DNA of 49,171 bases from assembly GCA_048939625.1 (NCBI GenBank), contig JBHLPH010000015.1, positions 1 through 49,171 of the forward strand, read 5' to 3'. The translations under genes and the position numbers were made by a program. This DNA comes from Promethearchaeota archaeon (lineage in GTDB: Archaea; Asgardarchaeota; Hermodarchaeia; Hermodarchaeales; Hermodarchaeaceae). The notes under the pieces were generated by a model, which saw only the letters and a list, made by a program, of their open reading frames with translations, was not told the DNA's origin and made no database searches. Of this stretch, positions 7,067-40,594 are shown piece after piece. The first letter of the stretch is position 1. Each line of letters begins with the position of its first letter.

Positions 7067-7174
7067 TGGTGGGCCGGGCGTGAATTGAACACGCGACCTC
7101 CGCCGTTTCCTCGCATCCAGCCTGTTTGGGCTAAATCCTGTGAGAGCGGCGTCATACCACTAGACTACCGGCCC
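7067..7174 (-). tRNA. tRNA-Val(CAC) with one 33-nt intron, CCA encoded
   Basis: Reverse complement folds: acceptor GGGCCGG/CCGGCCC, A73, CCA; anticodon stem CCGCT/GGCGG with loop CT-CAC-AC after intron removal; T arm GCGTG-TTCAATT-CACGC. Mature length 75 nt. Intron is 7107-7139 (36/37) or 7106-7138 (37/38). Confidence 0.92.
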
Positions 7175-40313: not shown

Positions 40314-40332
40314 TGAAAACAAACGTTTAAAA
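40314..40332 (+). promoter_or_regulatory. Putative BRE/TATA promoter of the tRNA-Leu transcript
   Basis: A-rich segment followed by TTTAAAA (40326-40332); implies a TSS near 40352-40358. Confidence 0.55.
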
Positions 40333-40407
40333 CACACAGCAGTTATTCATTGCATCAAGCCCTGTGCGGGGGACCCTTCCGAAGGGGTCTTTGCCGCCAT
40401 ACCGGTG

Positions 40408-40594
40408 GCGGGGGTATCTACGCTTGTAGACCCCACAGCCAAGCCTGGTTAACGGCGCAGGAGTCACCTGCTGCGGTAGGCTGATGGCGTTACTCAAGAT
40501 CTAACCAGGTTCATGAGACATCCTGTCCGGCAGCGGTTCGAGGGTTCGAAGGAGCACCGCACTGCGAGCTCCGAAATTCCCTCCCCCCGCACCA
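40408..40594 (+). tRNA. tRNA-Leu(CAA) with four BHB introns (8/9, 30/31, 37/38, 59/60), CCA encoded
   Basis: Exons 40408-40415, 40437-40461, 40492-40498, 40520-40550, 40578-40594 join to GCGGGGGTAGCCAAGCCTGGTTAACGGCGCAGGACTCAAGATCCTGTCCGGCAGCGGTTCGAGGGTTCGAATCCCTCCCCCCGCACCA (88 nt). Acceptor, anticodon and T stems pair perfectly, with a long variable arm and A73. Each junction sits in a BHB motif. Confidence 0.93.

Follow-up and report, generated by a model that had tools for sequence, protein, structure and literature searches.

Archaeal tRNA genes are known to carry BHB introns, and the non-canonical positions listed for them are 3/4, 20/21, 22/23, 25/26, 29/30, 30/31, 45/46, 53/54, 56/57, and 59/60 (Yoshihisa 2014, PMC4090602). 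Asgard tRNA genes contain up to five introns per gene, many missed by standard callers, and Atabeyarchaeia tRNA-Leu(CAA) genes of 175 nt have three observed introns (PMC11291895; 10.64898/2026.10.13.758758). A preprint on Asgard tRNA introns also notes a few insertions in “acceptor stem and junctions” but gives no particulars (Goswami et al. 2026, 10.64898/2026.10.13.758758). The tRNA-Leu(CAA) gene described here shares with the genes of these studies its Asgard lineage and its multiple introns. The studies, however, deal mainly with Atabeyarchaeia, Freyarchaeia, and Jordiarchaeia and with D-arm insertions, group acceptor and junction cases as “other,” and report no leader element (PMC11291895; 10.64898/2026.10.13.758758).

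Known systems elsewhere resemble the locus in other respects. The 3/4 intron of some Thermoproteales tRNAs (Sugahara et al. 2008, cited in PMC4090602) is likewise a short BHB intron near the 5′ end with acceptor and leader bases in its motif; our intron lies instead at 8/9, and it comes with a spare acceptor strand that is conserved, as well as with a leader:D-loop helix. In split and permuted tRNA genes (Nanoarchaeum equitans, Caldivirga, and Thermofilum pendens; Chan et al. 2011, PMC3218864), the leader is integral to the BHB and an unusually distant promoter betrays the gene structure, which is also the case here, whereas our gene is contiguous and co-linear and its upstream piece duplicates, rather than replaces, a part of the tRNA. 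Pre-tRNAs of Cyanidioschyzon merolae also contain multiple ectopic introns, and the order of their removal follows structure and energy (Soma et al. 2013, PMC3728597), but this is a eukaryotic nuclear system and no acceptor-strand intron or spare strand is reported in it (PMC3728597).

We analyzed a 49,171-nucleotide stretch of a Hermodarchaeota genome (contig JBHLPH010000015.1), hereafter the window, which contains at 40408-40594 (+) a tRNA-Leu(CAA) gene interrupted by four short introns. All features of this gene given below are on the (+) strand. Splicing the four introns in silico yields an 88-nt type II tRNA with an encoded CCA, which ARAGORN identifies as Leu(caa). Exon 1 (GCGGGGGU, 40408-40415) comprises tRNA positions 1-8 and is followed by intron 1 (40416-40436, 21 nt, at 8/9), whose first base is A. 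Exon 2 (40437-40461) extends from A9 to G30. The 3′ end of the gene (40584-40594) consists of the acceptor 3′ strand CCCCCGC, A73, and the encoded CCA.

Intron 1 forms a strict hBHBh′ motif, in which two 3-nt bulges surround a 4-bp helix that is flanked by h and h′. The outer helix pairs G(-1)G1C2 (40407-40409) with G10C11C12 of exon 2 (40438-40440), which supplies its 3′ strand, and the central helix pairs G3-G6 (40410-40413) with an intronic CCCC (40431-40434). The bulges are G7, U8, and the intronic A (40414-40416) on one side and the intronic AC (40435-40436) plus A9 (40435-40437 in all) on the other, and the inner hairpin is TCTAC-GCTT-GTAGA (40417-40430). A preliminary description of this DNA had proposed an hBHBh′ fold at 40407-40440, and every element of it is present there. 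It had also placed the intron at 8/9 behind an 8-nt first exon, which is confirmed both by the BHB rule for boundaries, since a cut after the second bulge base gives 40416-40436, and by the canonical tRNA obtained after splicing. Excision of intron 1 exactly restores the contiguity of U8 and A9. As that description also recognized, the fold uses the 5′ acceptor strand, with bases 1-6 and the leader engaged, and excludes the mature acceptor stem. On the strength of sequence comparison, we conclude that 40416-40436 is a genuine BHB intron, of the type cut by the splicing endonuclease, at position 8/9 of a Hermodarchaeota (Asgard) tRNA-Leu(CAA).

Intron 2 (about 40462-40491, 30 nt) is at 30/31 or 31/32, with a relaxed motif and approximate boundaries; a strict-motif scan of the window found no strict BHB for it. 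Within 40454-40525, it interlocks with the canonical intron 3 (40499-40519, 21 nt, at 37/38, with central helix CTCA/TGAG) around the 7-nt anticodon exon. The outer helix of intron 3 is the anticodon stem and is therefore continuous only once intron 2 has been removed. Intron 3 also contains AACCAGG (40503-40509), which is complementary to CCTGGTT of the D-loop. Intron 4 (40551-40577, 27 nt, at 59/60) has a strict hBHBh′ motif.

To place intron 1 against chance, we compared the window, on both strands, with block shuffles: 141 strict motifs (GU allowed) were found against 105.6 ± 10.6. The motif by itself is common by chance and proves little. The local fold is also unremarkable, with a z-score of only -1.55, and the strict BHB is not the minimum-free-energy fold, in which the G-run slips by one; the exact register has a probability of 0.0-0.1. 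Intron 1 owes its significance to its position, with the exact restoration of U8-A9, and to its conservation, rather than to the motif alone.

The unspliced locus received no call from ARAGORN or Rfam. Across the whole genome, only 17 tRNA matches reached the Rfam threshold, and further tRNA genes of 108-169 nt with D-loop or T-loop insertions fell below it or were missed, namely those at C36 54251 (-), C28 24203 (-), C62 11386 (+), C63 11381 (+), and C65 5280 (-) of the same genome. The tRNA set of this genome is largely hidden from standard callers. A second tRNA gene in the window, at 7067-7174 (-), has one intron and an Rfam score of 56.1 bits; ARAGORN mislabeled it Leu(caa), and the preliminary description read it as Val(CAC). 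Apart from that mislabeled gene, no other candidate for Leu(CAA) was found in the genome.

Orthologues of the window gene were identified in 14 genomes of the same genus and four of the sister genus. The 8/9 intron is kept in all of them but one; its length ranges from 14 to 34 nt, and its inner stem varies in sequence and stays paired. The paralogous tRNA-Leu(TAA) of both Hermodarchaeota genera also has an 8/9 intron. In tRNA-Leu(TAA) of the sister genus (L039-L042), this intron is only 14-16 nt long, with an inner helix of 2 bp and a loop of 3-5 nt, and is close to the minimum size of a BHB intron. Pairing statistics were calculated from 33 distinct homologous sequences after alignment. Paired cells make up 100% of the central helix, in which only the intron side varies, from G:C to G:U; 97.7% of the inner helix, in which each of the four pairs shows compensatory changes on both sides; and 94.9% of the outer helix. 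When the partners are shifted by +/-1, overall pairing falls to 47-48%. A 9/10 register was ruled out by orthologues whose intron begins with T, which fit the 8/9 register only. The exception among the orthologues is a congeneric species (L014, on G002:C12), in which a precise allele lacks both intron 1 and the leader segment and retains introns 2-4. This state fits conversion by cDNA of a partly processed RNA, or by a paralogue, with one crossover in a 7-nt repeat.

The same position is interrupted in other tRNA genes. A pattern scan for the exon context across 185,579 species genomes identified an unrelated and wholly different 8/9 intron in tRNA-Leu(GAG) of two Bathyarchaeia MAGs; the remaining matches were bacterial, non-BHB, and attributable to chance. 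From a T-arm-filtered candidate list we also recovered a hidden tRNA-His(GTG) in the same genome as the window gene (contig C38, 75063-75217, in the region 75050-75217), with three introns at 8/9, in the D-loop, and at 37/38. Its 8/9 intron is conserved in ten congeners with a covarying stem, and its outer helix is weak. This tRNA-His has A73 and a T at -1, so that G-1 is not encoded, and a search of the 87.6%-complete genome found no Thg1 (PF04446). Genome-wide scans for any acceptor pairing combined with any early BHB were swamped by chance matches and were abandoned. By these comparisons, the 8/9 position is not unique to the window gene, and the conservation of the intron in relatives and in the paralogue, together with the presence of 8/9 introns in the tRNA-His of the same genome and in Bathyarchaeia, shows that the intron is real and that its position recurs.

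The preliminary description had suggested comparison with catalogued non-canonical positions. Position 8/9 is in none of the published review lists compared (Yoshihisa 2014, PMC4090602, and other open reviews), a comparison that covers reviews and does not prove absence from the literature. A literature search on these two positions yielded nothing but papers on modification. BHB introns themselves are known; what appears to be new, in that we found no published mention of 8/9, is a BHB intron at this position with participation of the leader and a stand-in acceptor strand.

The leader of the window gene contains a second copy of the acceptor 5′ strand. A TATA-like promoter element (TTTAAAAC, 40327-40334), the motif of which is conserved upstream of orthologues, contains a hexamer whose end lies 34 nt from this distal copy (GCGGGGG, 40366-40372), downstream of it, and 76 nt from the proximal G1. 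For the majority of the other tRNA genes with a recognizable hexamer in this genome, the distance from hexamer to mature 5′ end is 27-37 nt, and it is the distal copy that sits at the normal promoter-to-5′-end distance. The distal copy precedes the true strand by 42 nt and is followed by leader hairpin 1 (GACCC...GGGTC, 40372-40389), which belongs to the minimum-free-energy fold and is present, with differing sequences, in each genus and each paralogue. Farther downstream, GCCGCC (40393-40398) is complementary to -4..+2, with which it can form hairpin 2 (with 40404-40409), or to GCGG of either acceptor copy. In the window gene, the GCCGCC/GGTGGC hairpin has an energy of -23.0 kcal/mol, compared with -20.2 kcal/mol for a bulged extension of the BHB outer helix; this competing hairpin leaves the central helix intact.

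The extension of the outer helix involves leader bases -7..-1 (40401-40407), which can pair with C12 and D-loop 15-20. Complementarity between leader -9..-2 and D-loop 15-20a is seen in most homologues (82.6% paired among the 33 homologues), with GC<->AU double changes at two pairs that represent few independent events. In Leu(TAA), for instance, GACTAAGC pairs with GCTTGGTC, and in other genes GACAAGGC or GACTAGGC pairs with GCCTGGTY; the pairing is weakest in the subgroup of the window gene. G-1 pairs with C12 in 28 of the 33 sequences; Leu(TAA) of genus g1 shows no conservation of base -1. The preliminary description counted one leader base in the fold, which is correct for G-1 in the outer helix and too few overall, as the D-loop pairing of -9..-2 in most homologues indicates.

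The distal GCGGGGG is nearly invariant in the 31 Leu(CAA) and Leu(TAA) genes with an 8/9 intron, while the flank upstream of it varies freely. All three independent families with an 8/9 intron have an upstream copy of the gene’s own acceptor 5′ strand. In tRNA-His, GCCGGGG lies 13 nt before GCCGGGA, and the variants of the copy in other species (GCTGGGA, GCCGGGA) still pair with the 3′ strand; in the Bathyarchaeia tRNA-Leu(GAG), the copy is GCGGAGGG, 3 nt upstream. The intron-less allele of L014 has no distal copy, and its tRNA begins where the others have one. Three other Leu genes in the same genome as the window gene, with the same or nearly the same acceptor and without an 8/9 intron, also have no copy. 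In a curated set of 36 tRNA genes, there is a single further upstream match, which is weaker and includes two wobbles.

Partition-function folds of 26 full Leu precursors predict that the distal copy pairs with the acceptor 3′ strand (P 0.80-1.00) and that the proximal strand does not (P about 0). For the window gene, 40366-40372 is predicted to pair with 40584-40590 with P 0.95. The copy of tRNA-His is predicted to pair with its 3′ strand in 9 of 10 precursors (P 0.65-1.00), and the same pairing is present in the Bathyarchaeia fold. From these models, the spare GCGGGGG may meanwhile pair with CCCCCGC as a stand-in acceptor stem at which RNase P and 3′ trimming may act, a proposal for and against which we see the balance as even. 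Scrambling the spare copy in silico left the predicted probability of the BHB helix unchanged, and mutating it still did not free the proximal strand for the 3′ strand in most Leu(CAA) precursors; the thermodynamic model therefore gives no support for the necessity of the copy. In two-dimensional folds, the spare strand still wins the 3′ strand after splicing, so a swap of strands, as proposed below, would rest on tertiary stabilization outside the model. We also considered a BHB that excises the 42 nt between the acceptor copies; it is impossible in any register, the flanking tetramers being identical and not complementary. Since no BHB can remove this segment, the mature end can plausibly be reached only through RNase P.

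RNA from a close relative bears on the same leader. A single 225-nt contig in one wetland metatranscriptome run matches 40367-40591 (+) end to end and has all four introns; it is the unspliced precursor. It differs from the window at 10 positions, all inside introns 1, 2, and 4, and we assign it to a close relative because its differences lie only inside introns. At its 5′ end the contig lacks just the first base of the distal copy, and its last base is A73. The run gave no spliced joints, and nothing in it covered the locus beyond 40367-40591; contigs cannot show absence of the spliced form. The contig shows that the leader from the distal copy on is co-transcribed with the tRNA and that unspliced precursor accumulates. 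Its ends fit end-trimming at the stand-in stem, but contig ends are not equivalent to mapped RNA ends, and the 5′ end of the contig might result from sparse coverage close to a start some 10 nt upstream. As for the machinery, the genome encodes an archaeal RNase P RNA and two EndA paralogues (PF01974; at C38:8695-8949 and C46:2767-3027; open frames of 188 and 202 aa), which presumably form an (alpha-beta)2 heterotetramer of broad specificity.

The reading that we favor, and consider probable as a whole, combines the 8/9 BHB intron with a spare strand, a cut by EndA while the leader is attached, a swap of strands, and RNase P at 40408. Transcription would start about 10 nt upstream of the distal copy, which, as predicted, would pair with the 3′ strand and keep it from competing with the BHB; the ends may be trimmed at this stem. 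The proximal strand, the leader, and intron 1 would form the BHB, and EndA and a ligase would remove intron 1 with the 5′ leader still attached. Ligation would make the proximal strand contiguous with U8-A9 and the D-arm; this strand would then displace the stand-in, and RNase P would make the mature 5′ end at 40408. A more elaborate version has two steps of 5′ maturation, with RNase P acting at the distal copy, then splicing and the strand swap, and then a second RNase P cut. We put this version forward tentatively, leaning slightly against it; if true, it would mean 5′ maturation in two steps, for which no precedent has been described among tRNAs.

The order of events is where our reading departs most from the preliminary description, according to which neither formation of the acceptor stem nor RNase P action is possible until intron 1 has been removed. 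For the final cut at the proximal G1, which must wait, this stands. As a blanket rule it is too strong: a stand-in stem is predicted with P 0.80-1.00 in 26 precursors and the RNA contig starts at the distal copy, so that end-trimming at the distal copy may precede splicing. Taken literally, the rule would mean that there is no acceptor-type stem and no RNase P action before intron 1 is removed and that the GCGGGGG of the leader is irrelevant. Such a model accommodates the mutual exclusion of the BHB and the mature acceptor stem and the pairing of G-1 with C12 in 28 of 33 sequences. Against it are the distal copy, with its conservation, its presence beside 8/9 introns in three gene families, and its predicted pairing with the 3′ strand, and the RNA contig that starts at this copy; we consider the model unlikely.

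A relic-type origin has been proposed for disrupted tRNA genes with upstream duplicates. Applied here, the distal copy would be the original 5′ end, orphaned by the insertion of a new 5′ strand and intron and since then tolerated and unused. The position of the copy, exactly at the ancestral promoter distance, speaks for such an origin. Against disuse are the invariance of the copy in two genera and two paralogues, next to bases saturated with change; the changes in the tRNA-His copy that keep the 3′-strand pairing (for example, GCTGGGA); and the loss of the copy together with the intron in L014. We judge an unused relic to be just as doubtful as the literal model.

Marginally less likely again is that RNase P acts first, at the proximal G1, and that EndA then cuts a relaxed HBh′ motif with a 2-bp outer helix, the leader serving transcription or stability. 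Heterotetrameric EndA enzymes do cleave relaxed motifs (PMC4090602; PMC5829648), and both the lack of conservation of base -1 in Leu(TAA) of genus g1 and the weak outer helix of tRNA-His would be compatible with this order. Against it are the conserved leader:D-loop pairing with its double changes, the prediction that the proximal strand never pairs with the 3′ strand in unspliced RNA, and the sole RNA seen, which keeps the whole leader from the distal copy on. Finally, that 40416-40436 is not an intron, the gene being a pseudogene or the insertion being retained in mature RNA, would agree with the observation of no spliced RNA and with the failure of standard tools to find the gene, but it is very improbable given a BHB geometry conserved with compensatory changes over 33 sequences, the existence of an intron-less allele, transcription of the locus, and a genome in which another Leu(CAA) gene was not found.

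The finding adds the acceptor/D junction to the sites where archaeal tRNA introns can persist, and the comparative evidence shows the leader to be a part of the splice signal at 8/9. It also accounts for the failure of standard annotation to find such genes. The spare strand suggests a solution to the conflict between engaging the acceptor strand in a splice motif and keeping the rest of the tRNA folded. The order of RNase P, 3′ trimming, and splicing can thereby be tested directly in Asgard archaea, which are the prokaryotes most closely related to eukaryotes.
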